Shown here piece by piece: positions 27,225-48,545 of a stretch of DNA of 64,000 bases; the first letter of the stretch is position 1, and each line of letters starts with the position of its first letter. A program made the position numbers and the translations under genes. This stretch comes from a virus, in IMG/VR virus record IMGVR_UViG_3300049893_001204, positions 1-64,000 of that record, one strand, 5' to 3'. The notes beneath the pieces are model-generated. The model saw only the letters and a list, made by a program, of their open reading frames with translations. It did not search any database and was not told where the DNA came from.

Positions 27225-27527
27225 ATGCAATTGACCAAGGAAGAGCAGAAGTCTTATGACTTCGATACTCGCTGCCAGATGGTGGCAAGTTACCTGCATG
27301 AAGGTAAGCCTGTATCCATGACTGCGAAGCAGCTAGCTTACTATGGCGTAACGCCGCACCAGGTTATAGCTGAGCTGGGTGGTTGGCTTCGCTCGGAAGA
27401 GCAAGAAGCCTGCTGGGAAGCTGAGCATTTATACGGCGGCAGCCGCCGCAAGCGAACATATGTTGTGTACTGCACCAAGGTGCAGGACAAGTATGTGTTC
27501 AAGGCTAAGGTAGCTGACTACGCTTGA
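27225..27527 (+). CDS. Early hypothetical protein
   Basis: 100 aa; its TGA begins element C0. Confidence 0.6.
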   Translation: MQLTKEEQKSYDFDTRCQMVASYLHEGKPVSMTAKQLAYYGVTPHQVIAELGGWLRSEEQEACWEAEHLYGGSRRKRTYVVYCTKVQDKYVFKAKVADYA

Positions 27528-27572
27528 AGGTTACCTCTACCCCTGGGCAACCAGGGGTTTATGTAGCCCTCA
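27525..27572 (+). repeat. Structured element family C, copy 0
   Basis: TGA-A-GGTTAC...CCCCTGG-GCAA-CCAGGGG...GTAGCC-C-TCA. Confidence 0.65.
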
Positions 27573-27696
27573 CCCGCGTTTATTCCCCCATTTCTGATAC
27601 GAATTCGTATCGCGCGCGATGGGTTTGGGTGTAAGGATGGTCTTCTGGAAGAAGACAGTCTATGCATTAGGTGCCAGATATTTTATCATAGGTACA

Positions 27697-27721
27697 TGTC
27701 AAGCTGGACGTTAAACGTAGC
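27697..27721 (+). repeat. Pseudoknot family B, degenerate copy
   Basis: TGTC-AAGCTG-GACG-TTAAAC-G-TAGC. Confidence 0.45.
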
Positions 27722-27746
27722 AGACAACTTGGCGGTCGTTCACGAT

Positions 27747-27780
27747 CTTGGCAGCTGCAATTCCGCAGTGTAAGTCCAAG
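27747..27780 (+). repeat. Structured element family A, copy 1
   Basis: CTTGG-CAG-CTGC-AATTCC-GCAG-TGTAAGT-CCAAG. Confidence 0.75.
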
Positions 27781-27797
27781 CTCACCAGGAGAACATT

Positions 27798-27995
27798 GTG
27801 GACTACACCGTTAACATCATCGAGCTTGACAACAACTACTTCCTTCAGGAAGTTTTTGCTGTCACTGAGTTCCAGTACGTGGAACAGGTGACTGCAGGGC
27901 CGTTTCAGGCTCGATGGCAAGCAGACGTGCAACGTTCTGTTGCTTACCCCGCTTATCGGGGATTAACAGATGAGCATTGCCGTCTGCAACACTGA
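27798..27995 (+). CDS. Early hypothetical protein
   Basis: AGGAG SD and GTG start; its TGA begins element D1. Confidence 0.55.
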   Translation: MDYTVNIIELDNNYFLQEVFAVTEFQYVEQVTAGPFQARWQADVQRSVAYPAYRGLTDEHCRLQH

Positions 27996-28069
27996 GCTGT
28001 AGTACTGCACATCTGTGCAGGGCCAGGTGCAACTCCTGGCCTCAGTTATTGCCTCCAGCGGAGATAGGC
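27991..28069 (+). repeat. tRNA-like element family D, copy 1
   Basis: ACTGA...CTGCAC-ATCT-GTGCAG-GGCCAGG-TGCAACT-CCTGGCC-TCAGT-TATT-GCCT..AGGC. Confidence 0.7.
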
Positions 28070-28092
28070 ACCGCACACACACGGAGAAACCC

Positions 28093-28338
28093 GTGAGCAA
28101 CCGCGACCAGCACCACCTTGCTCCGCTCAACGGAGACGGCAACCTCCCAACCAGGGAAGAAGCCGGCGAGTACGTCTTTAACCAGTGCAAGCACTGGATG
28201 GAAGAAGGTCACTCGCAGGTGTTAACCCGCGACCAAGGTCTTCAGATTGCCTGCTGGGCATTGAAGATCGCAGGAGCTCAAGAGCTTCTGACACACGTTA
28301 TTGCAGAGCTTGTTGAGCTTCCCGATAACTACTGCTGA
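28093..28338 (+). CDS. Early hypothetical protein
   Basis: GGAG SD and GTG at 28093. Confidence 0.55.
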   Translation: MSNRDQHHLAPLNGDGNLPTREEAGEYVFNQCKHWMEEGHSQVLTRDQGLQIACWALKIAGAQELLTHVIAELVELPDNYC

Positions 28339-28403
28339 TCCGTAACCAAGCGGGTGGGCAGGTGCAAACCCTGCCCCAGTTATTGCCACCCACTGAGGGT
28401 GGC
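28334..28403 (+). repeat. tRNA-like element family D, copy 2
   Basis: GCTG-A-TCCGT-AACCAA-GCGGG-T-GGGCAGG-TGCAAAC-CCTGCCC-CAGT-TATT-GCCACCC-ACTGA-GGGTGGC. Confidence 0.7.
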
Positions 28404-28416
28404 CTAGCTCAAGTCA

Positions 28417-28626
28417 ATGTCCATGATCAAGAACTGTTTCGTTGTTGTCTTCAACGGCAACGTTGTTGGTATGCATGCAACTGAGGAGGCAGCTGCTCAG
28501 CAAGTATTACAGTTAGCTGAGGAGTGGCAACTTCATGCCGACTGCGGAGCCGAAGTGCCAAAACCAGTATTGGTTGCAATGTCTTTCAATGAATGGATGC
28601 AGCACGAAAGTGTTGTTGTATTCTGA
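28417..28626 (+). CDS. Early hypothetical protein
   Basis: 69 aa. Confidence 0.55.
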   Translation: MSMIKNCFVVVFNGNVVGMHATEEAAAQQVLQLAEEWQLHADCGAEVPKPVLVAMSFNEWMQHESVVVF

Positions 28627-28681
28627 TTTCTGCATCAAGCCCTGAGTAATCAGGGTTTCTTGCAGGACTCAACATCCTGTA
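28624..28681 (+). repeat. Structured element family C, copy 1
   Basis: TGA-T-TTCTGCA-TCAA-GCCCTGA-GTAA-TCAGGGT-TTCT-TGCAGGA-C-TCA-ACA-TCCTGTA. Confidence 0.85.
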
Positions 28682-28702
28682 TCCCACACCTCAAGTCAGT
28701 TC

Positions 28703-28888
28703 ATGACTGCACTCAACATTCGTAAGAACATTGGCGGTCTGCTCCATGCTACTGCATCAGCAGTGGAGCAGATCAAGGTACCTACCAAGCAGCAGCTTAA
28801 TGAGAAGGTAGATGAGTACCGCATTCGTGCGGCTGCACTCATCATGCCTAATGATGCTGCATTTGTTATTCCTGGAGCTAAGAAGTGA
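28703..28888 (+). CDS. Early hypothetical protein
   Basis: 61 aa. Confidence 0.55.
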   Translation: MTALNIRKNIGGLLHATASAVEQIKVPTKQQLNEKVDEYRIRAAALIMPNDAAFVIPGAKK

Positions 28889-29091
28889 AGAACGATTTTA
28901 CTGGAGCAGTAGTTGCCATTGCTATTGGCAACGGACTAGGCTTTCTTCTGTCCATTGCTGGACAGAAGATGATCAACAAGCATCAGATAGCTGTATGTCC
29001 GAGCAAACCTAATCATTCACTTGTGATGGTTAGGAGTGTAGTTGGTGACAGCTACTACTGCATTGCTGATAAGTACTTAGACAAGCACTGA
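28885..29091 (+). CDS. Early small membrane protein
   Basis: N-terminal hydrophobic helix, GTGA coupling. Confidence 0.55.
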   Translation: MKNDFTGAVVAIAIGNGLGFLLSIAGQKMINKHQIAVCPSKPNHSLVMVRSVVGDSYYCIADKYLDKH

Positions 29092-29146
29092 CGTTTGCAC
29101 ATTCCCTTGTGGTAACACAAGGGTTTCTGCAGACCTCACGTCTGCA
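29089..29146 (+). repeat. Structured element family C, copy 2
   Basis: TGA-C-GTTTGCA-CATT-CCCTTGTG-GTAA-CACAAGGG-TTTC-TGCAGAC-C-TCA-C-GTCTGCA. Confidence 0.85.
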
Positions 29147-29173
29147 CCAATTCAACTCAACCCAACTAGGACT

Positions 29174-29425
29174 ATGTCTCCTGCAAGTGTTGAATATCTG
29201 TTGACCCAAGATGCCAGGTTGCTGGCACGCAGGGATTCAACGCCTGCCCATCCTGCTATCGATGCAGAGATTGAGGACTGCCGTCAGGCAGCACTTGATC
29301 TTTACTTCAAGTGGCAAGATGGGACAGCACAGTTCCAGGAACTTACACCCTTTGTGGTGATCTTGGAGCGCAAGGTTGAATTAAACCGTGCACTCATCAA
29401 GTGGTTGAAGAACCACGAGGATTGA
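29174..29425 (+). CDS. Early hypothetical protein
   Basis: 83 aa. Confidence 0.6.
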   Translation: MSPASVEYLLTQDARLLARRDSTPAHPAIDAEIEDCRQAALDLYFKWQDGTAQFQELTPFVVILERKVELNRALIKWLKNHED

Positions 29426-29491
29426 TTCCTGTACTTAACCCTACCTATTCCATGTGATAGGTGGGTTTTCTACAGGACTTAACATCCTGTA
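29423..29491 (+). repeat. Structured element family C, copy 3
   Basis: TGA-T-TCCTGTA-CTTA-ACCCTACCTAT..ATAGGTGGGT-TTTC-TACAGGA-C-TTA-ACA-TCCTGTA. Confidence 0.85.
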
Positions 29492-29517
29492 CACCACAGC
29501 ACAACTCAGCACTAAAC

Positions 29518-29916
29518 ATGACTGAAGCCATCAAGAAGTATGCAGACTTCCAGCAAGTCGTCTTTCACGGACGCATTGCATACATGGAAGCTGTCAACTA
29601 TGACGGCAAAGAATTTCTTGCTGTTACGTTGATGCACACGTTGTCTGAGACAACGGATCTACGGATTCGTTTTACGAATGGCAACGGTCTTTTAACTGCC
29701 TACCGCAACGGTAATCTTGTGGTTGGTCAGGAGCTTACCATCAGTGGTAACATCAAGGGCATCCGTGCTTTCTACATGAAAGAGGATGAGCTTGTGCCAC
29801 TGAAGCATCCTGAGCTACAGGTCCGTTGCATGGGTTATGTCTTTGGTTCCAAGCCAGAGCAGAAACCTGAGGCAGTAGCAACAGCTGTGCCAACGCTGGA
29901 AGAAATTCCATTCTGA
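29518..29916 (+). CDS. SSB-like OB-fold protein with an EEIPF tail
   Basis: VVFHGRI...LVVGQELTISGNI...LEEIPF. Confidence 0.6.
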   Translation: MTEAIKKYADFQQVVFHGRIAYMEAVNYDGKEFLAVTLMHTLSETTDLRIRFTNGNGLLTAYRNGNLVVGQELTISGNIKGIRAFYMKEDELVPLKHPELQVRCMGYVFGSKPEQKPEAVATAVPTLEEIPF

Positions 29917-29980
29917 TTTCTGCACTAAACCCTGCCCATCGTTAGATGGGTGGGTTTTCTGCAGGACTCAACATCCTGCA
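29914..29980 (+). repeat. Structured element family C, copy 4
   Basis: TGA-T-TTCTGCA-CTAA-ACCCTGCCCATC-GTTA-GATGGGTGGGT-TTTC-TGCAGGA-C-TCA-ACA-TCCTGCA. Confidence 0.85.
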
Positions 29981-30005
29981 AACAGTCTACCCAACATCTC
30001 AACAC

Positions 30006-30269
30006 ATGCGATTATCAATTGATCAACATGATATCGACGAAGCTTGTGCTGAGTTCGGTATTTCTCAAAGCGACTATTACATAACGTGCACATCCAGTGC
30101 AATATATATGCACTGGGTAGCAACACCAGAGCAAATCAAGAAGTATTTTGAAACTGGACATTGTTGTTTATGCATAGATATAGGAGGTGAATGGATAATA
30201 TCTGATGAGGTAGAAGATTACAGAATGCCTAATCGTTTAACTGCATGCCGTTACATTCTTGATGCTTGA
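30006..30269 (+). CDS. Early hypothetical protein
   Basis: ATG after an A/C-rich leader. Confidence 0.55.
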   Translation: MRLSIDQHDIDEACAEFGISQSDYYITCTSSAIYMHWVATPEQIKKYFETGHCCLCIDIGGEWIISDEVEDYRMPNRLTACRYILDA

Positions 30270-30270
30270 T

Positions 30271-30471
30271 ATGAAACACATAGTTTCACTAGGCAACAAC
30301 CGCTATGTACACCTCGATTCTTATGGTGAGTCTTCTAAGACTCGAGCCGTAAGTCAGGTGATGGTTGTTGCCTTTGCACTTGTCATTGCCTGCATTACAG
30401 TGCCTGCACTGGTAGGCATTGACATTACCAACATCAACTCAACACAGAACCATGACAACATTAAGCGTTAA
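30271..30471 (+). CDS. Small membrane protein
   Basis: One TM segment. Confidence 0.5.
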   Translation: MKHIVSLGNNRYVHLDSYGESSKTRAVSQVMVVAFALVIACITVPALVGIDITNINSTQNHDNIKR

Positions 30472-30802
30472 CACTGCACTAATTGAAGAACGTCTGCAGC
30501 AGCTTATTACTGCACTCATCAAACAGTTTGATGAATACAGCAGACGAAACTATGGACATCCAAGTGATACTCATTACTTGTCCTTTGAGATTGTCAAAGG
30601 TACCAAGTATTACAAGCTCATTATGAGGCAAGGTACTGGTACATCGGTGCATGCATTTATCAGTCGTCAGACTGGTGCCATGTACAAACCAGCTAGCTGG
30701 AAAGCACCTGCCAAGCACGTCCGGTACAATCTGCTGGATGACACATCATTTGCTGAGTGTCTACGCAGAGCTGACTGGGCTGGTGGGTATCTATACCTAT
30801 GA
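30452..30802 (+). CDS. Conserved cyanophage hypothetical protein
   Basis: GTKYYKL...SVHAFI...TGAMYKPASWKAPAKHVRYNL. Confidence 0.7.
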   Translation: MTTLSVNTALIEERLQQLITALIKQFDEYSRRNYGHPSDTHYLSFEIVKGTKYYKLIMRQGTGTSVHAFISRQTGAMYKPASWKAPAKHVRYNLLDDTSFAECLRRADWAGGYLYL

Positions 30803-30851
30803 GCTTTATCAGTATTCCAGGTAACTAACGTTTACCAGGAATCCAACTAAC

Positions 30852-30891
30852 TGCTGGGCATCCATGGATATACATGGTGTAAGTCCCAGCA
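30852..30891 (+). repeat. Structured element family A, copy 2
   Basis: TGCTGGG-CAT-CCATG-GATATA-CATGG-TGTAAGT-CCCAGCA. Confidence 0.85.
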
Positions 30892-30907
30892 AATCACAAC
30901 TCCTCCT

Positions 30908-31285
30908 ATGAAGGGACGCATTTCAATCCTCAAAGAAGATCGCATCTGGCAGCTGAGAACACAAGGTTATTGCTATGACACAATCGCACAGATTGTCAAT
31001 TGCAAACCTGGTTCAGTTCCAGCTGCACTTAAACGTACAAGACAACGTCCACCACTGGCACAAGATCCAGTAAAACGTGGACGTGTACGTGGCTTTCTAT
31101 CTGATGATCAGATCTCTGACATCAGAAAACGCAAAGCACTAGGTGAAACATTACATTCCATTGCAGGTGACTATCACATTGAGATATCATCTGTGTGGAA
31201 TATTGTAACCTACAACTCTTACAAGGAACCATCAGGTGATTCTGGTTACCCATTCAAGTTTGGTAACCGCCTGATGCATGGTTAA
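30908..31285 (+). CDS. Tandem HTH DNA-binding protein
   Basis: LRTQGYCYDTIAQIVNC and LSDDQISDIR...GETLHSIAGDYHI. Confidence 0.6.
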   Translation: MKGRISILKEDRIWQLRTQGYCYDTIAQIVNCKPGSVPAALKRTRQRPPLAQDPVKRGRVRGFLSDDQISDIRKRKALGETLHSIAGDYHIEISSVWNIVTYNSYKEPSGDSGYPFKFGNRLMHG

Positions 31286-31286
31286 T

Positions 31287-31318
31287 ACCTGGGCATCCTT
31301 ATGGTGTAAGTCCCAGGT
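31287..31318 (+). repeat. Structured element family A, copy 3
   Basis: ACCTGGG-CAT-CC-TTAT-GG-TGTAAGT-CCCAGGT. Confidence 0.85.
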
Positions 31319-31346
31319 TGTTTACAACTCACACAAGTTTACTGCA

Positions 31347-31478
31347 ATGGACTCAAATCAATTTGAAAATGACATTCCTTCTGATGCATTAGATGCATTA
31401 GCTGATCTTGCCTATGAGCAAGAAGAAGCAATGAGGGAAGAACTTAACCAACCGGAGGTTTATGATGACCAAACATGA
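31347..31478 (+). CDS. Small acidic protein
   Basis: MDSNQFEND... Confidence 0.5.
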   Translation: MDSNQFENDIPSDALDALADLAYEQEEAMREELNQPEVYDDQT

Positions 31479-31565
31479 CTACACCTTTGAGCAGGCATGG
31501 GATGATGGCGACATCATCATCATTCTGCTCACAATCATTTCACTTATCATCACGGAAATTGGATC

Positions 31566-31913
31566 ATGTCTAGTGCCAAGCACTCAACAGCAACAGCACG
31601 TAAGTGGATTGCTGTCTACAACACATTCAAAGAGTGTGTTGGCAGAGAACCAACCACCATCTGTGTCTACGAATGCAGCACTGCATATGGAGGACCACAA
31701 GAAGGAGGTTGGTACTACGAAACCGGCTGGCCGCTCAAGACGATCTGCGTCTTCTCCAAAAAGCAAGCCATCCGTGAAGCCATCCGAGCGGAAGCGGAAA
31801 CCGAAGAGCAACTTGGTAATCGCAAAGACTATCTCGGATGGAACGCCTGGTGTGTTAACTTCGACGTTGAGTACGCCAAGCCGTACCCAGAAGAACGTCC
31901 TTACTATTGCTGA
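31566..31913 (+). CDS. Conserved phage hypothetical protein
   Basis: YGGPQEGGWYY...YPEERPYYC. Confidence 0.65.
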   Translation: MSSAKHSTATARKWIAVYNTFKECVGREPTTICVYECSTAYGGPQEGGWYYETGWPLKTICVFSKKQAIREAIRAEAETEEQLGNRKDYLGWNAWCVNFDVEYAKPYPEERPYYC

Positions 31914-31918
31914 TACCA

Positions 31919-32152
31919 ATGCAAACAATTGGACAGAATCTCACAATCAACCAGCGTAATCTATATCTGTATTACTTGAATCATAAGAAGAAGAACAAGA
32001 ATGCCGTATGCTTTGTTCCAAAGATGCCAATGCAATCAACCCGCATGCAAGACTACTTGCGTGCGATAGAAGCTTTAGAAGAGAAGAAGCTTATAGCTGT
32101 GGACAGAAGCTCAGATAATTACACTGGCTGGATCATTCGAGATCCAAAATAA
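31919..32152 (+). CDS. Putative winged-helix protein
   Basis: LTINQRNLY...AIEALEEKKLIAV. Confidence 0.45.
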   Translation: MQTIGQNLTINQRNLYLYYLNHKKKNKNAVCFVPKMPMQSTRMQDYLRAIEALEEKKLIAVDRSSDNYTGWIIRDPK

Positions 32153-32220
32153 TTACCAGGTAATGCCAGATAGATACTGGCCTACCTGCTACACAACCCA
32201 CTGCTATTTAACACAACACC

Positions 32221-32882: not shown

Positions 32883-32949
32883 TATTAGCAACAACTACGT
32901 GAGCCAGATCATCCGCATAGCTGGCTGCGTATACTGGGCATGATCTAAC

Positions 32950-33000
32950 ACTTAGGCATTCACATTATCACACTAGTGTTATGTGATGTAAGTCCTAAGT
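32950..33000 (+). repeat. Structured element family A, copy 4
   Basis: ACTTAGG-CAT-TCACAT...ATGTGA-TGTAAGT-CCTAAGT, compensatory changes in both stems. Confidence 0.85.
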
Positions 33001-33027
33001 ACACAGCTAACACAACACAACAACACC

Positions 33028-33384: not shown

Positions 33385-33388
33385 TAAG

Positions 33389-33418
33389 CCTGGGCATCCG
33401 TAAGGTGTAAGTCCCAGG
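33389..33418 (+). repeat. Structured element family A, copy 5
   Basis: CCTGGG-CAT-CC-GTAA-GG-TGTAAGT-CCCAGG. Confidence 0.85.
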
Positions 33419-33449
33419 GTTTACAATCTATTCACAACATAACAACACC

Positions 33450-34464: not shown

Positions 34465-34654
34465 GAAATCATCAATCAATTTCGACAAGACAATCCTGGG
34501 ATTTAACATTACAGAACATGGTGTTAAGTCTTATACCAAGTCGATCAAGCTTGGTCCATTCCAGGTAACATTGAATGCACGTGACTCAGGTGTACGTGCG
34601 TCAGTAGCATTGCCTGGTACAGGATTGTCTAAACGAAACATTAAATTATTCTAA
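34457..34654 (+). CDS. DUF4236-like protein
   Basis: KSIKLGPFQVTLN...SVALPGTGLS. Confidence 0.55.
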   Translation: MPKKSSINFDKTILGFNITEHGVKSYTKSIKLGPFQVTLNARDSGVRASVALPGTGLSKRNIKLF

Positions 34655-34690
34655 AGATCTGGGCATCCTTACGGTGTAAGTCCCAGGTCT
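34655..34690 (+). repeat. Structured element family A, copy 6
   Basis: AGATCTGGG-CAT-CC-TTAC-GG-TGTAAGT-CCCAGGTCT. Confidence 0.85.
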
Positions 34691-34712
34691 GTTCACCTAC
34701 CAATTCAATTCC

Positions 34713-35379: not shown

Positions 35380-35383
35380 TCAC

Positions 35384-35414
35384 ACGTCCTAGGTCATGAC
35401 GTTAAACTGACCTA
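35384..35414 (+). repeat. Pseudoknot family B, copy 1
   Basis: ACGTC-C-TAGGTCA-T-GACGT-TAAAC-TGACCTA. Confidence 0.85.
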
Positions 35415-35440
35415 CACTACAAACTCAATCCACACCAACC

Positions 35441-37237: not shown

Positions 37238-37477
37238 ATGCCTGACTACACTGATGAACAGCTGCTTGCCATGGCAATGGCAAACATTGGTGAATACATT
37301 CATGATCACTCACCACACTATGTACTGATTGAAGATCCTCGTAATGAGGATGACTATGATACATGGGATTATGGTACTGAGCCATTACCTCATGATCACA
37401 CTTGGCATTCAACTGCAATCACAGTTGATGTAAGTCCAAGTGATGCCGGCGTAGCCCAATCGGAAGAAGGCAAGTGA
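37238..37477 (+). CDS. Small acidic hypothetical protein (3' end overlaps tRNA-Leu)
   Basis: MPDYTDEQLLAMAM... Confidence 0.5.
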   Translation: MPDYTDEQLLAMAMANIGEYIHDHSPHYVLIEDPRNEDDYDTWDYGTEPLPHDHTWHSTAITVDVSPSDAGVAQSEEGK

Positions 37478-37519
37478 CTTAAAATCACTCAAGTACGAGT
37501 TCGAATCTCGTCGCCGGCA
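37445..37519 (+). tRNA. tRNA-Leu(UAA), short variable loop
   Basis: GCCGGCG/CGCCGGC acceptor, AGTGA-CTTAAAA-TCACT anticodon arm, ACGAG-TTCGAAT-CTCGT T arm, A73. Confidence 0.9.
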
Positions 37520-37531
37520 GTCTTTCTTTTT

Positions 37532-38038
37532 ATGTTTATGAGCCAAGCTAAAGCTGCTTTAATACAAGCTTATGAAAAAGGTTATCGAGTTAAAGATAAC
37601 GTTGTTTATGGGATTGTTAAAAAGCAACCATTAAAACTCAGTTGCTCTAAGTCTGGCTATCTATTTTTTAATGTAAAGTTTGGTTCAAAAACAGTTAAAG
37701 TATTTCTGCATCGTTTAGTTGCATATGAAAAGTATCAAGACAAATTGCTTGAGCCGGGTATCTTGGTTCGACATTTAAACGGCAATAGCAAAGATAATTC
37801 ATTTGGAAATATTTGCATTGGAACTCAAACTGAAAACATGTTAGATAGAAGTCCGGAAGAACGTTTGAATCATGCTATTAAGGCATCTAGTTCTATACGT
37901 AAATTTACAAATGAGAAAGTAAATCAAATTAAACTTGACCATTCAAATGGTTTAGGTTATAAAGCTTTAATGGAAAAGTATGGCATTACTTCTAAAGGAA
38001 CCTTGCATTATATTCTTACTCATGAATATGTAACGTAA
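37532..38038 (+). CDS. HNH homing endonuclease
   Basis: SGY...VFLHRLVAY...VRHLNGNSKDN..N...GT..EN; AT-rich, next to a tRNA. Confidence 0.85.
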   Translation: MFMSQAKAALIQAYEKGYRVKDNVVYGIVKKQPLKLSCSKSGYLFFNVKFGSKTVKVFLHRLVAYEKYQDKLLEPGILVRHLNGNSKDNSFGNICIGTQTENMLDRSPEERLNHAIKASSSIRKFTNEKVNQIKLDHSNGLGYKALMEKYGITSKGTLHYILTHEYVT

Positions 38039-38041
38039 ACA

Positions 38042-38069
38042 CTGGGCATCCTTATGGTGTAAGTCCCAG
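38042..38069 (+). repeat. Structured element family A, copy 7
   Basis: CTGGG-CAT-CC-TTAT-GG-TGTAAGT-CCCAG. Confidence 0.85.
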
Positions 38070-38098
38070 CCACCAACCCACACAGCAACTTCAACATC

Positions 38099-40958: not shown

Positions 40959-40985
40959 ACGTCCTAAGCATGACGTTAAACTGCT
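40959..40985 (+). repeat. Pseudoknot family B, copy 2
   Basis: ACGTC-CTA-AGCA-T-GACGT-TAAAC-TGCT. Confidence 0.8.
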
Positions 40986-41008
40986 CCACACCAACTCACT
41001 ACAACATC

Positions 41009-41797
41009 ATGAAACTTCTTAAGTTTTCTACTGGGAACGGCAAGCTCAAGAATCGTTTGATCTTTTCGTTGCCAGCGGGTTATGCATGCCCACATGCTGG
41101 TGTATGCAAGACCTTTGCAGATCGTGTCACAGGTAACATTACTGACTTACCTCAGCACACTGGTACTACAGCGGATGAGTTCCGCTGCTTTGCTGCAATG
41201 GCAGAGACTAGGCCAACCGTACGTGATGCACGTTGGCATAACTGGGATCTGCTGCGTAATACCATCCATCTCAATGGCAATCAGTCAATGCTGATGCGTG
41301 ATCTGATTGACATGTCGTTGTTGATGGAACCAGAGAAGGAACTTGTACGCATCCATGAGAGTGGTGACTTCTGGATTGAAACCTACATGCGTGCATGGGC
41401 AATGGTTGCAGCACAGCGACCTAAGCAGAAGTTCTATGCCTATACCAAGTCTCTTGGCATGTGGTTGAACTTACGTGATCAGCTGCCATCTAACTTCTAT
41501 CTCACTGCATCTTACGGTGGTACGCTTGACTATCTCTTGCCAAAGTATCCAGATGTGTTCAAGCGTATTGCTTATGTGGTATACACAGAAGATGAAGCTA
41601 AAGAGCGTGGTCTAGAGATTGACCATGACGACAGCCATTGCTTTGGCAACAAGCCGTTTGCACTCCTTGTGCATGGCAGCCAACGCGCTGGATCAGACGC
41701 CATGAAAGCTTTGTCTCAACGTAAGAAAGACAAGGGATTCGTTGGGTACGGTAAAACATTCCAAAAAGAATCCGTACCTATTAACGTCTTTGCTTAG
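41009..41797 (+). CDS. Gene product 88 (GP88)-like protein
   Basis: GNGKL...FSLPAG.ACP.A..C...CFA...VRIHESGDF...FYAYTKS. Confidence 0.7.
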   Translation: MKLLKFSTGNGKLKNRLIFSLPAGYACPHAGVCKTFADRVTGNITDLPQHTGTTADEFRCFAAMAETRPTVRDARWHNWDLLRNTIHLNGNQSMLMRDLIDMSLLMEPEKELVRIHESGDFWIETYMRAWAMVAAQRPKQKFYAYTKSLGMWLNLRDQLPSNFYLTASYGGTLDYLLPKYPDVFKRIAYVVYTEDEAKERGLEIDHDDSHCFGNKPFALLVHGSQRAGSDAMKALSQRKKDKGFVGYGKTFQKESVPINVFA

Positions 41798-41833
41798 ACC
41801 CGCTACTATCAGTTAGTTATACCTAACTGATTA

Positions 41834-42061
41834 ATGGCTTATCTGCTGGCATGTTGGAAGTCTGGTACACCATATGGTGTCCGGGCTTCCACTGATTCTT
41901 TTGAGTTGATTCCGTTAGACTCGGAAACAGCATTAGGAAAAGTCTTTAGTCATCCGTATCGCTCAGGTGCACAAAAGATTTTGTCCTGGATCCAGCAGAA
42001 TGATCATGTCCTCAATCGTGAAGAACTCTCAATTCAAGATTGCGCCAGGTTCCAGCGATGA
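41834..42061 (+). CDS. Hypothetical protein
   Basis: 75 aa, TACTAT upstream. Confidence 0.55.
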   Translation: MAYLLACWKSGTPYGVRASTDSFELIPLDSETALGKVFSHPYRSGAQKILSWIQQNDHVLNREELSIQDCARFQR

Positions 42062-43862
42062 ACGTTGGCTCATCTTTGATTTGGAATCGGATGGGTTGTA
42101 TGACGTTGTATCCGTTATCCATTGCATTGTCATCTATGACATTGGAGCCAACCAAACTTTTACTTATGGGCCTGATTGCATTGCTATTGCTCTTGATCAT
42201 TTGGCAACCGCTGATGTTTTGATAGGGCACAACATCATCTTTTATGATCTGCCTGTTCTGCAAAAGTTGCATTCATTTGTCTGCAAAAGTCGGATTGTAG
42301 ACACACTTATTTGCACTCGATTGATCTGGCCTAAGGAGGTACTCTATGACCTTGACACAGAACAATATCCGCAGGTTCCAGAAAAGAACCGTGGATCCGC
42401 ATCACTTAAGGCTTGGGGATGGCGCTTGGCCAATCACAAGATCGACTTCAAAGACTTCAGTGAATACAGCCAAGAGATGTTGGACTACTGTGTCCAGGAT
42501 GTTGTTGTCACCCTTAGCCTTTGGCAATTCATTGTCAAACAAAACTATCCGCAAGCAGCTTACAAACTTGAACACGACTTTGCTATTGCCATTAACAAAC
42601 AAATTAGAGCAGGCATTCCTTTTGACGTTGATGCATCTCTTGATCTTGTGGATGGTCTTAGAACAAAACAAAAAGAACTCGAAGTTCATTTAAAAAAAAT
42701 CTTTCCACCTATCAAACATGAGACTACCTTTATCCCCAAGGTTAACAACTCCACGAAGGGTTACGTTAAAGGCCAAGCTTTTACTAAAGTACATTGGGAG
42801 GAATTTAATCCTGGCTCTCGTGAGCAGATTGTACAAAGGCTACAAGCAAAGTACGGATGGACCCCTGAAACAACTACGGAGAAAGGTAATCCAATTCTTA
42901 ATGACGATATACTTGCGGCACTTCCATATCCCGAGGCAATTCAGTTATCCGAATACATGTTGGTTAAGAAGCGTCTTGGCCAAATAGCAGATGGTCGTAA
43001 CGCATGGCTCAAGCTTGTTAACAATGACACTGGTCGTATGCATGGTGATCTAGTAACCAATGGTTGCATCACAGGTCGTTGTGCTCACCGCAACCCAAAC
43101 ATGGGTCAAGTACCAGCAAGCTATTCACCTTATGGTCATGAGTGCCGTAGTTTGTTCCATGCCCCGCAAGGTTGGGATCTTATTGGTATTGATGCCAAAG
43201 CATTGGAGCTGCGTTGTTTAGCTGGTTATCTTGCCCTCTGGGATGATGGTGAGTATGCATCAATGGTTATTAATCCAGAAGTAGATATCCATAGCTATAA
43301 CCAAGAGCAATTTGGTGTAGCAACCAGGGACATAAGCAAACGTCTTTTATATGGGCTTCTATACGGGTGTGGTGCAATTAAAGCAGGTACTATCATCAAT
43401 GCAGAAGAGAAAGATCCTGAGGTACTTGCAACTTTAGGGCGTAATGCTATCGATGGTTTTATGCGTGGTGTACCAGCACTGAAAAAGCTTAAACAAAAGA
43501 TTGAAGAGACTATTGGAACTCGTGGTTATCTTATTGGTCTTGATGGTCGCACTCTACATTGTCGTTCCGCTTTTAAAGGATTGAATGTTTTGTTGCAATC
43601 CAGTGGTGCAATCATCATGAAACAAGTTGTAATTAATATGCACAACAACATTGAACAAAACCTGGCTTTACCACATGGTCAGGAGTGGGAACAAATGCTT
43701 ATGATCCATGACGAAGTCCAGTTGGCATGCAAGCCTGAGCACACAGAACACATCCGTGAACAAGCATTGCAAGCCTTCCCCCAAGCAGGTGCGTTCTTTG
43801 GATTTAAATGTACAATTGAAGGCGACTCCCGCGTTGGCAAGACGTGGGCTGATACACATTAA
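42000..43862 (+). CDS. polA: DNA polymerase family A (T7-like) with 3'-5' exonuclease
   Basis: FDLESDG, GHNIIFYD, YCVQDV exonuclease motifs; TGR...PN, DAKALELR, R..SK.LLYG.LYG, IHDEVQ. Confidence 0.95.
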   Translation: MIMSSIVKNSQFKIAPGSSDERWLIFDLESDGLYDVVSVIHCIVIYDIGANQTFTYGPDCIAIALDHLATADVLIGHNIIFYDLPVLQKLHSFVCKSRIVDTLICTRLIWPKEVLYDLDTEQYPQVPEKNRGSASLKAWGWRLANHKIDFKDFSEYSQEMLDYCVQDVVVTLSLWQFIVKQNYPQAAYKLEHDFAIAINKQIRAGIPFDVDASLDLVDGLRTKQKELEVHLKKIFPPIKHETTFIPKVNNSTKGYVKGQAFTKVHWEEFNPGSREQIVQRLQAKYGWTPETTTEKGNPILNDDILAALPYPEAIQLSEYMLVKKRLGQIADGRNAWLKLVNNDTGRMHGDLVTNGCITGRCAHRNPNMGQVPASYSPYGHECRSLFHAPQGWDLIGIDAKALELRCLAGYLALWDDGEYASMVINPEVDIHSYNQEQFGVATRDISKRLLYGLLYGCGAIKAGTIINAEEKDPEVLATLGRNAIDGFMRGVPALKKLKQKIEETIGTRGYLIGLDGRTLHCRSAFKGLNVLLQSSGAIIMKQVVINMHNNIEQNLALPHGQEWEQMLMIHDEVQLACKPEHTEHIREQALQAFPQAGAFFGFKCTIEGDSRVGKTWADTH

Positions 43863-43864
43863 CC

Positions 43865-44020
43865 ATGTACTTACTTGTAAAATTACTTAACGAATTACTT
43901 ACTCTTGGTGTTTATTCAACATTGATTAAATGTGCATTTGACTTTACTTGGTATCAAGGATTTGCTCTTGGTTATTTGTTTTGGATTTTACGTGATGCCT
44001 GTAAAAATCCCAACAAATGA
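43865..44020 (+). CDS. Small membrane protein (51 aa)
   Basis: MYLLVKLLNELLTLG...; fills the gap before element B3. Confidence 0.45.
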   Translation: MYLLVKLLNELLTLGVYSTLIKCAFDFTWYQGFALGYLFWILRDACKNPNK

Positions 44021-44025
44021 TTATT

Positions 44026-44052
44026 CGTCCCAGGTATGACGTTAAACTGCCT
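44026..44052 (+). repeat. Pseudoknot family B, copy 3
   Basis: CGTC-CC-AGGTA-T-GACG-TTAAAC-TGCCT. Confidence 0.8.
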
Positions 44053-44073
44053 TAACACCTTGCATCTGTACTC

Positions 44074-44889
44074 ATGAACTTTGCTTCTGTCTGCGCTCAA
44101 ACTAACGAAACTCCACGGGAAGTATTTATTAGTGCAACAGCTACAGCTATCCGCTGTTCGGTAACATTGCCTCCTGTTGGCAAGAAAGCTCCTACTGTAC
44201 TTGAACTCAATGTATATGGAAAAAACGCAGAGCGTTTTGTCCAAGCACCCAAAGGATCCCTCATCTACATTCACGGCGCCAAGCTACGTCACGATCTTGA
44301 CACCAAAACGTTTTTGTTACATGGAGGAATTATTGCTCCGGTTACGGAACAATTCCCGATCTTTAATACAATCATCTTGAGTGGTCGTTGTATTAAAGAC
44401 ATTGACCACGATGACGCACGTGCATTTCGTACAACACCAGATGGTTTGATGATTTGCAATCAAACACTATCTGTTAGCACTGGTCGCAATCAAGCTGATC
44501 TCTTCAACTTCTTTGCGATGAACAATGCACAGGACAAACTTAACAATGCCGAATTGTTAGTTAACTTCACACGCAAGGGAACTGGTCTAACCATTAACGG
44601 TCGCCTTGTAACAGATACATGGATTGACCGTGAAACAAAAGAAAAGAAATCTCAGACCAAGATCCAGCTGGTTAATATGACCCTGGCTCCCAAGGGATCT
44701 GTTGAACCGCAGCCAATTACACCGCAAACCACCGTTGCCTCTACTGAGAATGTTGCCACGCTTTGGGGTGGCCGCACTGCTGACGAAACTCCTGATCCCT
44801 GGAACAAAGCCTCAGGTGGTGGTCTGCCTGATCTCCCTGGACACTATGGCCCTGCTCCAACTGAAATCGATGAAGAGGTTCCGTTCTGA
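44074..44889 (+). CDS. ssb: Single-stranded DNA-binding protein, tandem OB folds
   Basis: Two SSB-like repeats (VYGKNAE..KGSLIYI; NTIILSGR..RKGTGLTINGRL.TDTW.D) and an EEVPF tail. Confidence 0.8.
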   Translation: MNFASVCAQTNETPREVFISATATAIRCSVTLPPVGKKAPTVLELNVYGKNAERFVQAPKGSLIYIHGAKLRHDLDTKTFLLHGGIIAPVTEQFPIFNTIILSGRCIKDIDHDDARAFRTTPDGLMICNQTLSVSTGRNQADLFNFFAMNNAQDKLNNAELLVNFTRKGTGLTINGRLVTDTWIDRETKEKKSQTKIQLVNMTLAPKGSVEPQPITPQTTVASTENVATLWGGRTADETPDPWNKASGGGLPDLPGHYGPAPTEIDEEVPF

Positions 44890-45209
44890 TGTCTGATCAC
44901 ACTCCTGTCAAGCCACTGAAAAGTGAGTTTTGTTTTCTACATGAAGACTCAGATGGTACTGAAACCATTGTTAAGTTTGACCAGGTTTTTACCGACAAGA
45001 TCATTGAGAACTTCATTCAGTTCTTAAGGGGTTGCGGTCACCATGACATTTGTATTTACACTGCATTGCAATTTTTTGCAGAAGAATACTTTCAATCCAT
45101 GGAGTCTATGGATCTTGTAGAGATCCATGAAGATAACAAAGAAATGTTAAAAGACCTTAGAAAGAAAAAGAAGAAGGGAGTTAAGCAAGAAGCTGATGAC
45201 TTAAACTGA
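44889..45209 (+). CDS. Hypothetical protein
   Basis: IIENFIQFLRGCG. Confidence 0.6.
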   Translation: MSDHTPVKPLKSEFCFLHEDSDGTETIVKFDQVFTDKIIENFIQFLRGCGHHDICIYTALQFFAEEYFQSMESMDLVEIHEDNKEMLKDLRKKKKKGVKQEADDLN

Positions 45210-45214
45210 TGGCC

Positions 45215-45242
45215 CGTCCTGGGATGACGTTAAACTCATCCA
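45215..45242 (+). repeat. Pseudoknot family B, copy 4
   Basis: CGTC-C-TGGGA-T-GACG-TTAAAC-TCATCCA, second stem bulged. Confidence 0.7.
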
Positions 45243-45263
45243 CTAACCCACTCGGAACTGACC

Positions 45264-46367
45264 ATGACTTCAACTCCGATTGACATCTTGAGTGATTCCT
45301 GGATGGATGAAATCCAACCTGAAACAACTTCTGCACCACTCCCTGCTTCTACCAACAAAATGACCATGAAGAAAACCTCTTCCCTTGCCAAGCGTGACAT
45401 TGCTTCTTTCCAAATTTTCCAATCTAAGGAATTTGTTTCTGGGTACCAGAACCTCGTCACAATTCAACCTCTTAACAAGTCCAAGACACGAGGTTGGTTC
45501 GTGCGGAAGTCAGACCTGGACACTTGCGGATGGAGTGCCACTGAAAGTGACTTTGCTACAGGTTCAGTTATCTGGAACTACAAGCAAACTTTTGGCATGG
45601 CTCCCAACACTTCAGTGGAAGAAGGACTCAATTTTACTGAGCCTCGTATTCAAATCCTTCTACGTTCTCCCCTCATGGTTGAGGAAACCACAGGGATGAG
45701 GCAAACGATTGGTACGTTTGATAACCCTGAGGTTAAGGAATTGTTTGAAGCCGATAAGGTTGCATCTGATCTTGCCGGCAGCAAAGGTGAGCTGTACAAG
45801 CGCAAGTACAGTGTGCGGACCAAATACCTGATCTACCTGCTGACCAAAGACAACAAGCGTGCCCATAATATTCCTATGGTGCTGACGCTGAAAGGTCTTA
45901 ATGGTACAGATGTATCTGATAAGGTACGTATCTATGAGCGTGAGATGTCTAAGTGTCTGAGCAAAGCTCTGGATACTGAGATTCCTCTGAGCTTCAATGA
46001 GAAGTTCTATGCCACTACAGTGTTCTCTCCTGTGTTGGCTAATGAGATGCGTGGTGCTAACAACGTAGAGATCTGCGCTGTTGAATCATTTGACATTCCT
46101 GATTACAGCACACAAGAAGATGCGATTGAATCTTTGAATCGTTTGTCGATTCCAGATGAAGATCGTGAATCAACTTGGAAGTACCAGGAACTGTTCTTTG
46201 ATTACATCAACATCCATGCCAAGCAGGATGCACAGAAACTGGGTGGTGCCTATGGTATGAAAGATGGTGTAGAAGTATTGCCTGCTTCTCGTACCACAGA
46301 TGCCATTGAGGTTAAGGCATTGCCTTCTCGTAACCCCATCACTGGTGAGGATTCTGATCTGAGCTAA
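45264..46367 (+). CDS. Replication/recombination-region protein (DUF5895-like?)
   Basis: 367 aa, near ssb and gp157; RTKYLIYLL..DNK..H.IP.VLTLKG. Confidence 0.45.
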   Translation: MTSTPIDILSDSWMDEIQPETTSAPLPASTNKMTMKKTSSLAKRDIASFQIFQSKEFVSGYQNLVTIQPLNKSKTRGWFVRKSDLDTCGWSATESDFATGSVIWNYKQTFGMAPNTSVEEGLNFTEPRIQILLRSPLMVEETTGMRQTIGTFDNPEVKELFEADKVASDLAGSKGELYKRKYSVRTKYLIYLLTKDNKRAHNIPMVLTLKGLNGTDVSDKVRIYEREMSKCLSKALDTEIPLSFNEKFYATTVFSPVLANEMRGANNVEICAVESFDIPDYSTQEDAIESLNRLSIPDEDRESTWKYQELFFDYINIHAKQDAQKLGGAYGMKDGVEVLPASRTTDAIEVKALPSRNPITGEDSDLS

Positions 46368-46632
46368 CACTAACAGAAGGATTAGCTAGGTCATTCGGAT
46401 TGATAATCACTTGATTAAAGATCCGAATGTCCTTTACTAAACCTTTAATAATTCCTTGACGTTGAGTGGCAATCCTCGCCAAGAGGGTTGCCATCTCTTT
46501 TAGTTCACTAACGGAATTACATTCAGCAATGGAGCGTTTGATCTTTTCTTCCCAGAACTTATCATCAATTGATGGTTCAATTTCAAACGCATGCAATGGA
46601 GTGTACTCAAGTTCTTGTGTAGATTCTTCCAT
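46339..46632 (-). CDS. nblA: NblA-like phycobilisome degradation adaptor
   Basis: PSIDDKF..KIKRSI..SVSELKEM..LLARI..RQGIIKGLVK aligns by eye with the NblA helix-loop-helix; own TAGAAT at 46655-46660. Confidence 0.55.
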   Translation of the reverse strand: MEESTQELEYTPLHAFEIEPSIDDKFWEEKIKRSIAECNSVSELKEMATLLARIATQRQGIIKGLVKDIRIFNQVIINPNDLANPSVSVSSDQNPHQ

Positions 46633-46684
46633 TGTTTATGTAATTGTTAGTGACATTCTACTCAAAAACAATCAGAGATTCAAA

Positions 46685-46888
46685 ATGAAACCTGAAGAAA
46701 AAGCTGCATTACAGACAGGTGCCATTGCTGCTGGGCTAGGAAGCCTAGTAGCTCTGGTCGTAAGCAGCCCCATTACCTGGGGTGTGCTGGCCTACGGCAC
46801 CTATCGAATCAGTCGTCAGGCGTACCAGCGGACCAAGTACCGTGGTAAGCTGAAGCCTATCCCTGAGGAAGACACCTGGGGGATCTGA
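46685..46888 (+). CDS. Small membrane protein
   Basis: MKPEEKAAL... followed by a hydrophobic segment. Confidence 0.55.
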   Translation: MKPEEKAALQTGAIAAGLGSLVALVVSSPITWGVLAYGTYRISRQAYQRTKYRGKLKPIPEEDTWGI

Positions 46889-46924
46889 TTCCAACTCAAC
46901 TCAAACCACAACACACTATTAGCC

Positions 46925-47866
46925 ATGACAACTGCTCAACTTACAGAACTCAATGAAGGTCAGAAACTTATCTACACACGCACGAATATTGGCCGTGCGT
47001 TCCATGGGTTTGATGACACCGAAATTGCTGGCATTTATTTGCGAGATGATGATTGTTGCGTGGTGCGCCGCGATGGTAGCCAGCAGACTTACAACAGGGA
47101 ACTGATAAGAAAAGCTTATATATGCCACAAGGGTAGGCTTAAGGATTTCTTTTCATATTTAGGTCCTAACTATAGGGGTCCTAGCATATGGCGTAACAAC
47201 GCCTATGTTCTTTTCAAAGGATGGAACTATGTCCATGCACTCGGACACACAACACCCAACGCAAAGTTACAAAACCACTGGGCAGACAAATTTATACACC
47301 TATCAGATCAACACAAACTCACAACCCTCCTTCAATCTGACCAAACAGACCTGGGGCATCTGGTTGCGCCGGACGGGTTGCGGTCTACAGATCGGCCCAT
47401 TGATCTGGACTCTGAGTTGGTGGAAGACGAGAGTACCCTTCCGACATGTGAACCTTGGTGTTCATGCGGGTCCTTTCAGCGTCAGCTCCACAATCTTCCT
47501 CTGCTCAGACAAGAAGCAGAAGGAATCATGCCCTGGTGCATCCACCTGAGTTGGTTTATTAAGTACAGGCAACTGCTATGCAAGCGCACAGAGGTACGTA
47601 ATGCAGCACCATCTGGTACACCAGATAAATGCGTGGCTTGGTTTTATGCTCCACCGGTAGATGCAACCAGTGACGGTAAGTTTGTATTGCTGCATACCAA
47701 GCATGGGTCACAGGCACCGCTAACACACTGGCGTACCTACAAGAAAGATGAAGTCTTTACGCAAGCTGATGCATGGGCTTTGTTTGACAGTATGCTAGAT
47801 GCTGGTTATGTGCCATACCCTGGCACTTCTTTGCCACAACTTAAGACTGCACTCAAGAAACAATGA
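46925..47866 (+). CDS. SWIM zinc-finger protein
   Basis: WCSCGSF...PWCIH. Confidence 0.6.
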   Translation: MTTAQLTELNEGQKLIYTRTNIGRAFHGFDDTEIAGIYLRDDDCCVVRRDGSQQTYNRELIRKAYICHKGRLKDFFSYLGPNYRGPSIWRNNAYVLFKGWNYVHALGHTTPNAKLQNHWADKFIHLSDQHKLTTLLQSDQTDLGHLVAPDGLRSTDRPIDLDSELVEDESTLPTCEPWCSCGSFQRQLHNLPLLRQEAEGIMPWCIHLSWFIKYRQLLCKRTEVRNAAPSGTPDKCVAWFYAPPVDATSDGKFVLLHTKHGSQAPLTHWRTYKKDEVFTQADAWALFDSMLDAGYVPYPGTSLPQLKTALKKQ

Positions 47867-48030
47867 CACCAACCCAACGTTATGATCTGGACATTCCAGA
47901 AGACACCCATTGGGCACTTGTTAAGTTAGCTGCAGAACTTAAGATGCATCATGAAGACTATGCACAAAACATTCTGATTGGTCATGTCGAACACGAATTG
48001 GATCGACAAGCTGCAGCTAACAACGATTGA
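47863..48030 (+). CDS. Small ribbon-helix-helix-like protein (55 aa)
   Basis: RYDLDIPEDTHWALVKLAAE...YAQNIL; ATGA coupling. Confidence 0.45.
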   Translation: MTPTQRYDLDIPEDTHWALVKLAAELKMHHEDYAQNILIGHVEHELDRQAAANND

Positions 48031-48184
48031 AGAACCTGATGGGTCTTTGACAATTCAGATTGACTGGGATCCAGAAGATCCGGAGTTAGCTCTTTGGACT
48101 TCATGGGGTGAGGAAAAACAAAAACAACTTTTCCTCGATGCTTTAACCAAAACTCTTGACAAGGAAATTGACAATGACTATTGA
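47984..48184 (+). CDS. Hypothetical protein
   Basis: EEPDGSLTIQIDWD. Confidence 0.55.
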   Translation: MSNTNWIDKLQLTTIEEPDGSLTIQIDWDPEDPELALWTSWGEEKQKQLFLDALTKTLDKEIDNDY

Positions 48185-48512
48185 TCAGTATGGCTTGAAT
48201 GATCCAGAGTATACCAAGCTGTTCCTTAAGAATGCAGATCAACTAATTGATCTGTACTATAGGTTTAGCAATAAGCTAACGGCTGGTTACCAAATGGGTG
48301 TGCCAGAGGATGTTAAGCGTCAGCTCTTTGATGATGTTGTTTACAGAACCAATGACTGCGCTCGTGAGAAACATAAAGAAGAACATCCTGAAAGCATTGA
48401 ACTATATGTAAGTAATACAGAGTTGAAGAAAGAGATTGATTCTCTTAAAACAATTCTTCTTAATTTAGTTGAAGTATTGATTGCAGCCGAAGAAAATAAA
48501 CCGATGGAATAA
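48174..48512 (+). CDS. Hypothetical protein
   Basis: 112 aa. Confidence 0.55.
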   Translation: MTIDQYGLNDPEYTKLFLKNADQLIDLYYRFSNKLTAGYQMGVPEDVKRQLFDDVVYRTNDCAREKHKEEHPESIELYVSNTELKKEIDSLKTILLNLVEVLIAAEENKPME

Positions 48513-48516
48513 TAGT

Positions 48517-48545
48517 GCGTCCTGGTCATGACGTTAAACTGACCA
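48517..48545 (+). repeat. Pseudoknot family B, copy 5
   Basis: GCGTC-C-TGGTCA-T-GACGT-TAAAC-TGACCA. Confidence 0.85.

Follow-up and report, generated by a model that had tools for sequence, protein, structure and literature searches.

What do the small folds that occupy the gaps between the early genes of a lake cyanophage do? The genome in question is IMG/VR virus record IMGVR_UViG_3300049893_001204, a 77.7-kb record rated 98% complete, of which we analysed the first 64 kb (the window). Its source is an S-EIV1-like lake cyanophage, and Synechococcus phage S-EIV1 is its sole nucleotide match among cultured phages. Between 27.5 and 48.5 kb we found 20 intergenic elements, all on the + (coding) strand, that belong to four families, here called A (eight copies), B (five), C (five) and D (two); a preliminary description had reported about 20 structured elements in four families. 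This observation is real and well above chance, and the four families are conserved, covarying and absent from Rfam. A structure-based function at the RNA level is well supported by stem covariation, by an excess of G–U pairs and by the location of all copies on the coding strand. We favour, with a confidence that stops a little short of even, the reading that the elements are protein-independent punctuation of polycistronic RNA, that is, processing sites and roadblocks that would shield the downstream message. This reading rests on position, on analogy and on one forced case, in which a tRNA takes the place of an element.

The families are zoned along the block as the preliminary description had it, with C and D at its start, A mostly in its middle and B mostly towards its end, and A–D elements lie nowhere else in the genome, which includes the late block. 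A further, degenerate B copy that had been placed at 27.7 kb did not hold up, as it scored 10.8 bits (E = 4), equal to a chance match on the opposite strand. Searches against Rfam 15 gave no match to any of the four families, whether the cut-off was the gathering score, E ≤5 (over 22 kb) or, for two short stretches, E ≤10, and a literature search using the motif letters found nothing relevant. Sequence comparison placed members of each of the four families in further uncultured phages, where the loops stay the same and the stems change in a compensating way; covarying stems with fixed loops had been proposed from the copies in this genome, and the copies from other phages bore this out for A, B, C and D.

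Family B closely resembles a known viral RNA. Its core, CGUC..GACGUUAAACU, is the core of plant-virus coremin, an exoribonuclease-resistant RNA (xrRNA; xrRNA-C, Watson–Crick type). The five copies are as follows.

B1, 35385–35414 (+): 44.9 bits, coremin-like H-type pseudoknot before a PcfJ-like gene
B2, 40960–40987 (+): 44.2 bits, before a gp88-like gene
B3, 44026–44053 (+): 45.4 bits, before ssb
B4, 45215–45242 (+): 30.8 bits, register of stem 2 shifted, before a DUF5895 gene
B5, 48518–48545 (+): 46.2 bits

With filters off, a B covariance model run over both strands of the whole 77.7-kb genome returned only these five copies (31–46 bits). A pattern search that fixed stem 1 and UUAAAC found B in more than 114 IMG/VR contigs; of its 140 matches, 121 had a gap of 5 nucleotides (nt), which is not expected by chance. 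A second search left stem 1 free and asked for no more than UUAAAC with stem 2 paired. Across 119 distinct copies, 92% of the stem 2 cells were paired, compared with 83% after shuffling, and 121 cells had changed on both sides, compared with 46. Stem 1 also changes in step, with the forms GGUC/GACC, GGAC/GUCC, UGUC/GACA, AGAC/GUCU and AGUC/GACU found beside CGUC/GACG, and with CGAC/GUCG in a Staphylococcus phage and UCUC/GAGA in a Vibrio phage; several stem variants are present within one genome. Because both stems covary, we regard B as an H-type pseudoknot. G–U pairs outnumber A–C pairs in stem 2 by 83 to 14, an excess which indicates that pairing takes place in the coding-strand RNA.

Cultured phages that carry B infect Staphylococcus (83 records), cyanobacteria, Bacillus, Lactobacillus, Moorella, Mycobacterium, Arthrobacter and Paracoccus, and B is also found in 27 near-identical Vibrio phages and in bacterial genomes. 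Among the cultured phages carrying the motifs are Nostoc and Microcystis phages, S-EIV1, which has B, and S. aureus phietaviruses, whose B element is placed between the genes for head morphogenesis and scaffold. We found no match to B in 28 Gb of E. coli genomes, and in small samples there were two extra matches in 400 Bacillota genomes and none in 400 Gammaproteobacteria genomes, numbers too low to be informative. A preQ1-like riboswitch was considered for B and rejected, since at least five copies per genome precede unrelated genes. In Staphylococcus phage B166 (L153), a B-type pseudoknot with stem 1 CGAC/GUCG lies at 1501–1530 in a late operon, with a head-morphogenesis gene on one side and, on the other, the gene next ahead of that for the major capsid protein; the record annotates it as a BPROM-predicted promoter. 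Three IMG/VR contigs (L083, L093 and L038) contain tandem arrays of two or three B/coremin-like units, some of which have hexaloops such as CGAAAU and no long stem 2 and are nearer to the plant-virus form.

Family A is a bulged hairpin, and its copies are listed here; L006 is the related contig compared below.

A1, 27747–27780 (+): bulged hairpin CUUGG-CAG...UG-UAAGU-CCAAG
A2, 30854–30889 (+): bulged hairpin
A3, 31289–31316 (+): minimal 28-nt form
A4, 32952–32998 (+): long inner stem
A5, 33390–33417 (+): bulged hairpin
A6, 34659–34686 (+): three relatives have B at the matching junction
A7, 37401–37440 (+): 3–4 nt 5' of tRNA-Leu
A8, 38042–38069 (+): inserted with an HNH gene relative to L006

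The consensus has a 5-base-pair (bp) outer stem whose 5' strand finishes with GG; C-A-N, an inner stem-loop of variable length and N'-R-UAAGU come next, and the return strand of the outer stem opens with CC. The stem size is about 9–17 bp. Of the ten TAAGTCC words on the + strand of the window, eight fall inside A copies. An anchor-only search (GGCA...TAAGTCC), which served as the unselected test, gave 80 matches, in which the three unconstrained outer pairs were paired in 72–81% of cases, compared with 46–64% when partners were permuted. Alignment by MAFFT with end anchors and regular expressions gave 52 copies, partly picked by eye, in which 95% of cells were paired (versus 84%) and the covariation score was 0.314 (versus 0.103). 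The junction after the gene ending in ...IKLF* has A in this genome and B in L034, L043 and L071, so that, judged from the sequences, either family can take this position among related phages. At 32934–32941 (+), 10 nt upstream of the complete A4, the 5' half of a further A element stands alone (CUGGGCAU / CTGGGCAT); it is probably the scar of a recombination between A copies. When the A loop was compared by eye with the 11-nt tetraloop receptor, the K-turn and the sarcin–ricin loop, none of these fitted.

Family C comprises long hairpins that begin at the stop codon of the upstream gene.

C0, 27525–27572 (+): starts at the UGA of the upstream open reading frame (ORF), z = −5.65
C1, 28624–28681 (+): z = −3.68; UGA, lower stem UUCUGCA/UGCAGGA, internal loop, GNRA-capped upper stem, alternative partner UCCUGU
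C2, 29089–29143 (+): z = −4.15; C1-like fold with GUUUGCA / UGCAGAC / GUCUGC
C3, 29423–29491 (+): z = −4.08
C4, 29914–29980 (+): z = −5.85

All five fold as a single long hairpin of about 20 bp from the UGA stop (z from −3.7 to −5.9), and the upper stem is written in wholly different letters, with pairing kept, in 29 other contigs. Three segments of the element allow pairing of the first with the second or of the second with the third. Between C2 and C1 all three have changed in a mutually compensating way, and for this reason both helices seem to be selected. This pattern would be compatible with cutting followed by refolding, and a conformational switch sensed by the terminating ribosome would be equally possible. 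A 16-nt palindrome, GATACGAATTCGTATC, at 27597–27612 (+) recurs in L155, L164, L178 and L087; it forms the tip of the C upper stem in some relatives and may bind a protein.

Family D is a tRNA-like module, and a second small pseudoknot follows its first copy.

D1, 27991–28053 (+): closing CUGA/UCAG, variable hairpin, 7-bp T-arm with loop UGCAACU, then UUAUUGCC
Second small pseudoknot, 28050–28074 (+): after D1, UGCCU-CCA-GCGG-AGAU-AGGCA-CCGC, read from the sequence
D2, 28335–28403 (+): tRNA-like module and 3' hairpin, its CUGA including the upstream stop codon

We found D in at least 108 contigs. Its parts are a CUG(A)/CAG closing stem, the conserved hairpin UCCG-UNAAAG-CGGG and a 7-bp stem with loop UGCAAAC, and at five pairs of this T-arm between 19 and 36 of 60 sequences have changed on both sides. 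The T-arm is followed by UUAUUGCC and then by either a hairpin or the second small pseudoknot. Neither ARAGORN nor the Rfam tRNA model (E ≤10) called D as a tRNA. The small pseudoknot is a fifth small element, an H-type fold with the consensus UGCCY-CCA-GYGG-AGAU-RGGCA-CCRC directly 3' of D-type modules; in many relatives its stem letters differ and complementarity is kept. On its 3' side, the copy at 28050–28074 is followed by a GGAG Shine–Dalgarno sequence and then a GUG start.

The order of stop codon, element, leader and start codon that had been described holds for the gaps. The stop codon lies 5 nt from the element in four of the five B copies and 3–8 nt from it in six of the eight A copies, and it forms the first three bases of family C elements. 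Copies that precede messages are followed by leaders of 10–32 nt without a Shine–Dalgarno sequence, in which the G content is 11.6%, compared with 21.9% across the region. Distances from stop to B have a sharp minimum at 5 nt (exactly 5 nt in 44 of 114 scored copies), those from stop to A have a minimum at 3 nt, and leader lengths peak at 20–22 nt after B and 29–31 nt after A. Given ribosome footprints, such distances would keep the fold closed under terminating and initiating ribosomes. By our own count, about 20 of some 26 gaps of at least 40 nt in the block contain an A–D element. Most of the remaining gaps hold terminator-like or other strong hairpins, the latter at 32.16, 41.8 and 46.4 kb (z from −3.8 to −5.7). 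The hairpins at 32157–32188 (+; z = −3.8) and 46388–46433 (+; z = −5.5) lie outside all four families. The idea of one long early transcript proved too simple, as terminator-like hairpins at about 33.84 and 38.49 kb, and another read by eye at about 37.2 kb, would split the block.

The forced case concerns a tRNA gene that is part of the punctuated transcript.

tRNA-Leu(UAA), 37444–37520 (+)

A lies 3–4 nt ahead of this tRNA here and in nine relatives. L006 is 95–98% identical to this genome over shared blocks; there, A is followed by tRNA-Leu, then by a 25-nt leader and then by the ATG of the gene that here follows A8. Because the tRNA in L006 abuts the leader of the next gene, RNA processing is unavoidable at that junction; the comparison of the two sequences indicates that a tRNA can fill the slot of an element and that the downstream message in L006 must arise through RNA processing. 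In this genome, an HNH gene (37532–38038, +) and A8 are inserted between the tRNA and that same leader. By reading, we took this ORF to be the HNH endonuclease that Pfam found among the early proteins, and the insertion of HNH and A8 suggests a homing event that carried or duplicated A. B is associated with tRNAs elsewhere: in unrelated large phages that have tRNA arrays, it is found 0–1 nt past tRNA-Met, where no ORF ends. With A before a tRNA and B after one, the elements are not tied to translation.

The same comparison bears on recombination. Collinear blocks shared with L006 break at gene-sized replacements or insertions, and they resume at 27524 (the start of C0; 97% identity), at 28331 (the start of D2), at 34637 (22 nt before A6) and at 38072 (3 nt past A8). 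The differences begin or end at element edges, in line with the earlier suggestion that the repeats act as recombination joints.

The reading of the elements as punctuation would assemble these observations as follows, with both the enzymatic steps and the protection being what we infer. Early and replication genes would be read as long multi-gene RNAs, and each gap would supply a self-folding module followed by a short, G-poor, unstructured leader for the next ribosome, with the modules acting in cis. D and the real tRNA-Leu would be excised by RNase P and RNase Z. C would be cut by RNase III, and the freed 5' end would refold with the conserved third segment into a terminal hairpin. At the 5' edge of each unit, B or A would form a compact mechanical barrier to 5'-to-3' trackers, namely RNase J, RNase E scanning from the 5' end and ribosomes arriving from the upstream gene, such that the leader and gene behind them would be shielded. 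As a by-product, the repeated modules would serve as recombination joints that swap single-gene cassettes. The RNA-structure part of the processing and stabilization system that had been proposed for these elements stands; the role itself is backed indirectly by the tRNA slot, by B next to the 3' ends of tRNAs in unrelated phages, by the coremin core, by the C fold and by the D T-arm. Flavivirus xrRNA also halts bacterial RNase J1, and Xrn1-resistant RNAs are general mechanical blocks (PMC5760640).

Full RNase J matches were present in three of five B-carrying genomes. Most of the hosts of cultured B phages (Staphylococcus, Bacillus, cyanobacteria, Mycobacterium, Arthrobacter and Paracoccus) belong to taxa that carry RNase J, and the link between B and RNase J hosts is suggestive, not clean. 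Several points weigh against punctuation by roadblocks. The other two B-carrying genomes, both metagenome-assembled, had no full RNase J match. B occurs in phages of Vibrio, which is not known to have RNase J, and this argues against a role that involves RNase J only. B also has no second hairpin (hp2), a feature without which, according to the coremin papers, there is no resistance to Xrn1, and the short A copies, at about 9 bp, are not known to act as roadblocks. In L006, nothing would protect the 5' end of the message behind the tRNA, and protection would thus not be obligatory. Finally, an exact 5-nt spacing from the stop is the geometry of frameshift or readthrough stimulators, and by that analogy the elements may have a role in termination instead.

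This last point leads to the main rival, which we consider unlikely although it does not exclude processing or stabilization: that the elements are translational insulators or ribosome roadblocks, which, placed at the mRNA entrance of the ribosome that terminates on the upstream gene, would pause it, block readthrough or scanning and keep the leader free, such that every gene is translated independently, with RNA decay uninvolved. The sharp spacing minimum, which is that of frameshift stimulators, the G-poor leaders without Shine–Dalgarno sequences and the behaviour of coremin, which blocks scanning ribosomes and in its Watson–Crick type still stimulates −1 frameshifting without hp2, all speak for it. 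The spacing is equally explained by the tightest packing of a fold that ribosomes do not melt, however, and insulation does not account for A before a tRNA or for B after tRNAs where no ORF ends.

Less probable again, and in our view doubtful, is that each family is an operator, a site at which a phage or host RNA-binding protein switches early messages, as T4 RegA or gene 32 protein does. Invariant unpaired letters (UAAGU, UUAAAC and UGCAAAC) beside varying stems would suit such a site, as would the zoning of families along the genome. But the phages that carry B infect cyanobacteria, Firmicutes, Actinobacteria, Paracoccus and Vibrio, and B is present in bacterial genomes as well, which makes a shared phage partner unlikely, and A and B swap at one junction and the elements flank tRNAs. 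A phage-encoded partner was rejected as a candidate: Pfam found neither an RNA-binding nor a nuclease domain for this role among the 47 early proteins, the HNH endonuclease apart.

We give little credence to DNA-level cassettes of promoter plus terminator, similar to the PeSL of T4-type phages, in which each element ends one transcript, starts the next and is mainly a recombination site. The coincidence of element edges with differences from L006 would fit this, C3 and C4 have terminator-like scores, a TAnnnT hexamer is part of B, with a full −35/−10 match in B2, and the Staphylococcus phage copy is annotated as a predicted promoter. By contrast, the ratio of G–U to A–C pairs and the several stem variants per genome point to RNA pairing and not to protein-bound duplex DNA; among the five B copies a −35 match is confined to one, and A has no promoter-like hexamers; and the 25 nt from tRNA to ATG in L006 leave no room for a promoter. 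A sigma-70 promoter reading was itself rejected, as we found 30 promoter-like sites, compared with 38 expected, and only B2 overlaps one.

The least probable explanation makes at least one of the families a novel type of small self-cleaving ribozyme, which would cleave the long transcript with no protein involved: several unrelated structured classes do share the same intergenic slots, as known ribozyme classes share slots in phage regions, some unpaired nucleotides are strictly conserved and the layout of B (stem-loop plus pseudoknot) resembles the 5' half of pistol, yet B and minimal A (28 nt each) are smaller than any known self-cleaving class, counterparts of pistol P2/P3 and of its cleavage site are absent, and no Rfam model for pistol, other self-cleaving ribozymes, preQ1 or other riboswitches matched at the gathering score or, on short stretches, even at E ≤10.

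From about 26.7 kb to at least 51 kb, + strand genes include those for PcfJ-like, ThyX, gp88-like, family A DNA polymerase, SSB, DUF5895 and Gp157-like proteins, and a large primase and an exonuclease are encoded further along the genome. PHROGs and Pfam, applied to the large proteins, found no RNA polymerase. Ahead of the DNA polymerase ORF, a 140-nt gap within 41795–41967 (+) is strongly structured (z = −5.7), and a 75-amino-acid ATG ORF (41834–42061) overlaps the GTG-started polymerase frame, so that a frameshift may be possible there. On the opposite strand, the Rfam abiF RNA motif matches 56999–57035 (−) with 52 bits, compared with a gathering score of 37, and lies upstream of a same-strand pair of tRNA-Pro and tRNA-Thr (56176–56325).

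Returning to punctuation of polycistronic RNA, we propose a more specific form of it tentatively, as the less probable claim of the two: phages may use a toolkit of protein-independent RNA roadblocks in which, by analogy, B would be an exoribonuclease- and ribosome-resistant knot with the core of coremin from plant and fungal RNA viruses, and A a second, structurally new class that can replace it. If this is true, B would be the first xrRNA of prokaryotic viruses, exonuclease-resistant RNAs would extend from eukaryotic RNA viruses to bacterial viruses and a fold would be common to viruses of bacteria and eukaryotes. A and B, together with tRNA-like and RNase III-like modules, would turn long transcripts into separately stabilized single-gene messages. 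Many aquatic phages and, for B, also phages of Staphylococcus, Bacillus, Mycobacterium and others would then set message boundaries and lifetimes by tiny self-folding RNAs and not by promoters or proteins. RNA catalogues would gain four new families, and synthetic operons would gain 28-nt parts with which genes could be stabilized or insulated.

Among known systems, PeSL are cassettes of a sigma-70 promoter and a terminator in T4-type phages that are conserved as DNA sequence (PMC2839356, PMC4122927). The elements described here are likewise repeated intergenic modules in a variable early region, at the edges of gene-sized insertions and replacements, and the resumption of shared blocks with L006 at the four positions given above supports the comparison, though the elements are RNA folds and not promoters: they differ in their fixed loops, covarying stems and G–U pairs, and promoters are not enriched.

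In the T7 and T3 early transcript, RNase III sites R0.3–R1.3 allow a long phage transcript to be cut into stable single-gene messages. Only family C, whose irregular hairpins separate the cistrons of an early operon, span about 20 bp (two turns) and are interrupted by an internal loop, has the form of such a site. C differs from it in starting at the stop codon and in having a conserved third segment, with which the lower stem's 3' half can pair instead, and A (about 9–17 bp) and B (a 28-nt knot) are too small. In animal mitochondria, tRNAs punctuate polycistronic transcripts, and tRNA-like substrates of RNase P are known. A real tRNA-Leu inside the operon, abutting the next gene's leader in L006, resembles this arrangement, as does D, whose CUG/CAG closing stem is stacked on a covarying 7-bp arm with a T-loop-like heptaloop. 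Unlike a tRNA, D has no anticodon arm, is not recognized by tRNA-finding models and has different helix lengths.

The closest counterpart of B is coremin, which reads C1-G-U-C, loop, G9-A-C-G-U-U-A-A-A-C-U-A-C; xrRNA-C and its Watson–Crick form, xrRNA-WCC, are found in beny-, cucumo- and many other eukaryotic RNA viruses (PMC6546385, PMC10520033, PMC10321173, PMC5869530). Its first hairpin (hp1) has 3–4 bp (3–5 bp as a criterion) with an obligatory pyrimidine–purine closing pair, its loops have 4–8 nt with the consensus YGAD or YGNNAD, its spacer is conserved and hp2 is required (PMC6546385, PMC10520033, PMC10321173, PMC5869530). Coremin stalls Xrn1 and scanning ribosomes. In the Watson–Crick type, the loop pairs with the end of the spacer; this type resists ribosomes, also without hp2, and strictly needs hp2 for Xrn1 resistance (PMC6546385, PMC10520033, PMC10321173).

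B shares with coremin a 4-bp hp1 (CGUC/GACG) and the same C–G loop-closing pair, which is pyrimidine–purine and constant across seven covariant forms. It also reads like coremin over the letters G9–U19 (GACGUUAAACU). Set against the conserved coremin spacer of about 10 nt, (G)UUAAACUAC, this likeness is partial: UUAAAC was fixed by the search, the next U is present in at least 90% of copies, and the variable strand of stem 2 stands where coremin has its final AC. The B loop, C-(U/C)-N5-A-U, starts with C and ends with A-U, so that of YGAD/YGNNAD it fits the first Y and the last A and D but not the G; it pairs with the nucleotides 3' of the spacer, which is the Watson–Crick arrangement, with covariation in the 119 copies. 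Loops of 6–8 nt are tolerated in coremin, and some tandem phage copies carry the published hexaloop CGAAAU. By contrast, B occurs in double-stranded DNA phages and bacteria and is intergenic and not in a 3' untranslated region, its stem 2 has 5–6 bp compared with about 3 in coremin, the CUAC end of the spacer gives way to the stem 2 strand, its second loop letter is U or C and not G, and an unstructured A/C-rich leader follows it in place of hp2. Owing to the last two differences, we do not file B as a member of coremin; it resembles coremin and, by analogy, may act similarly.

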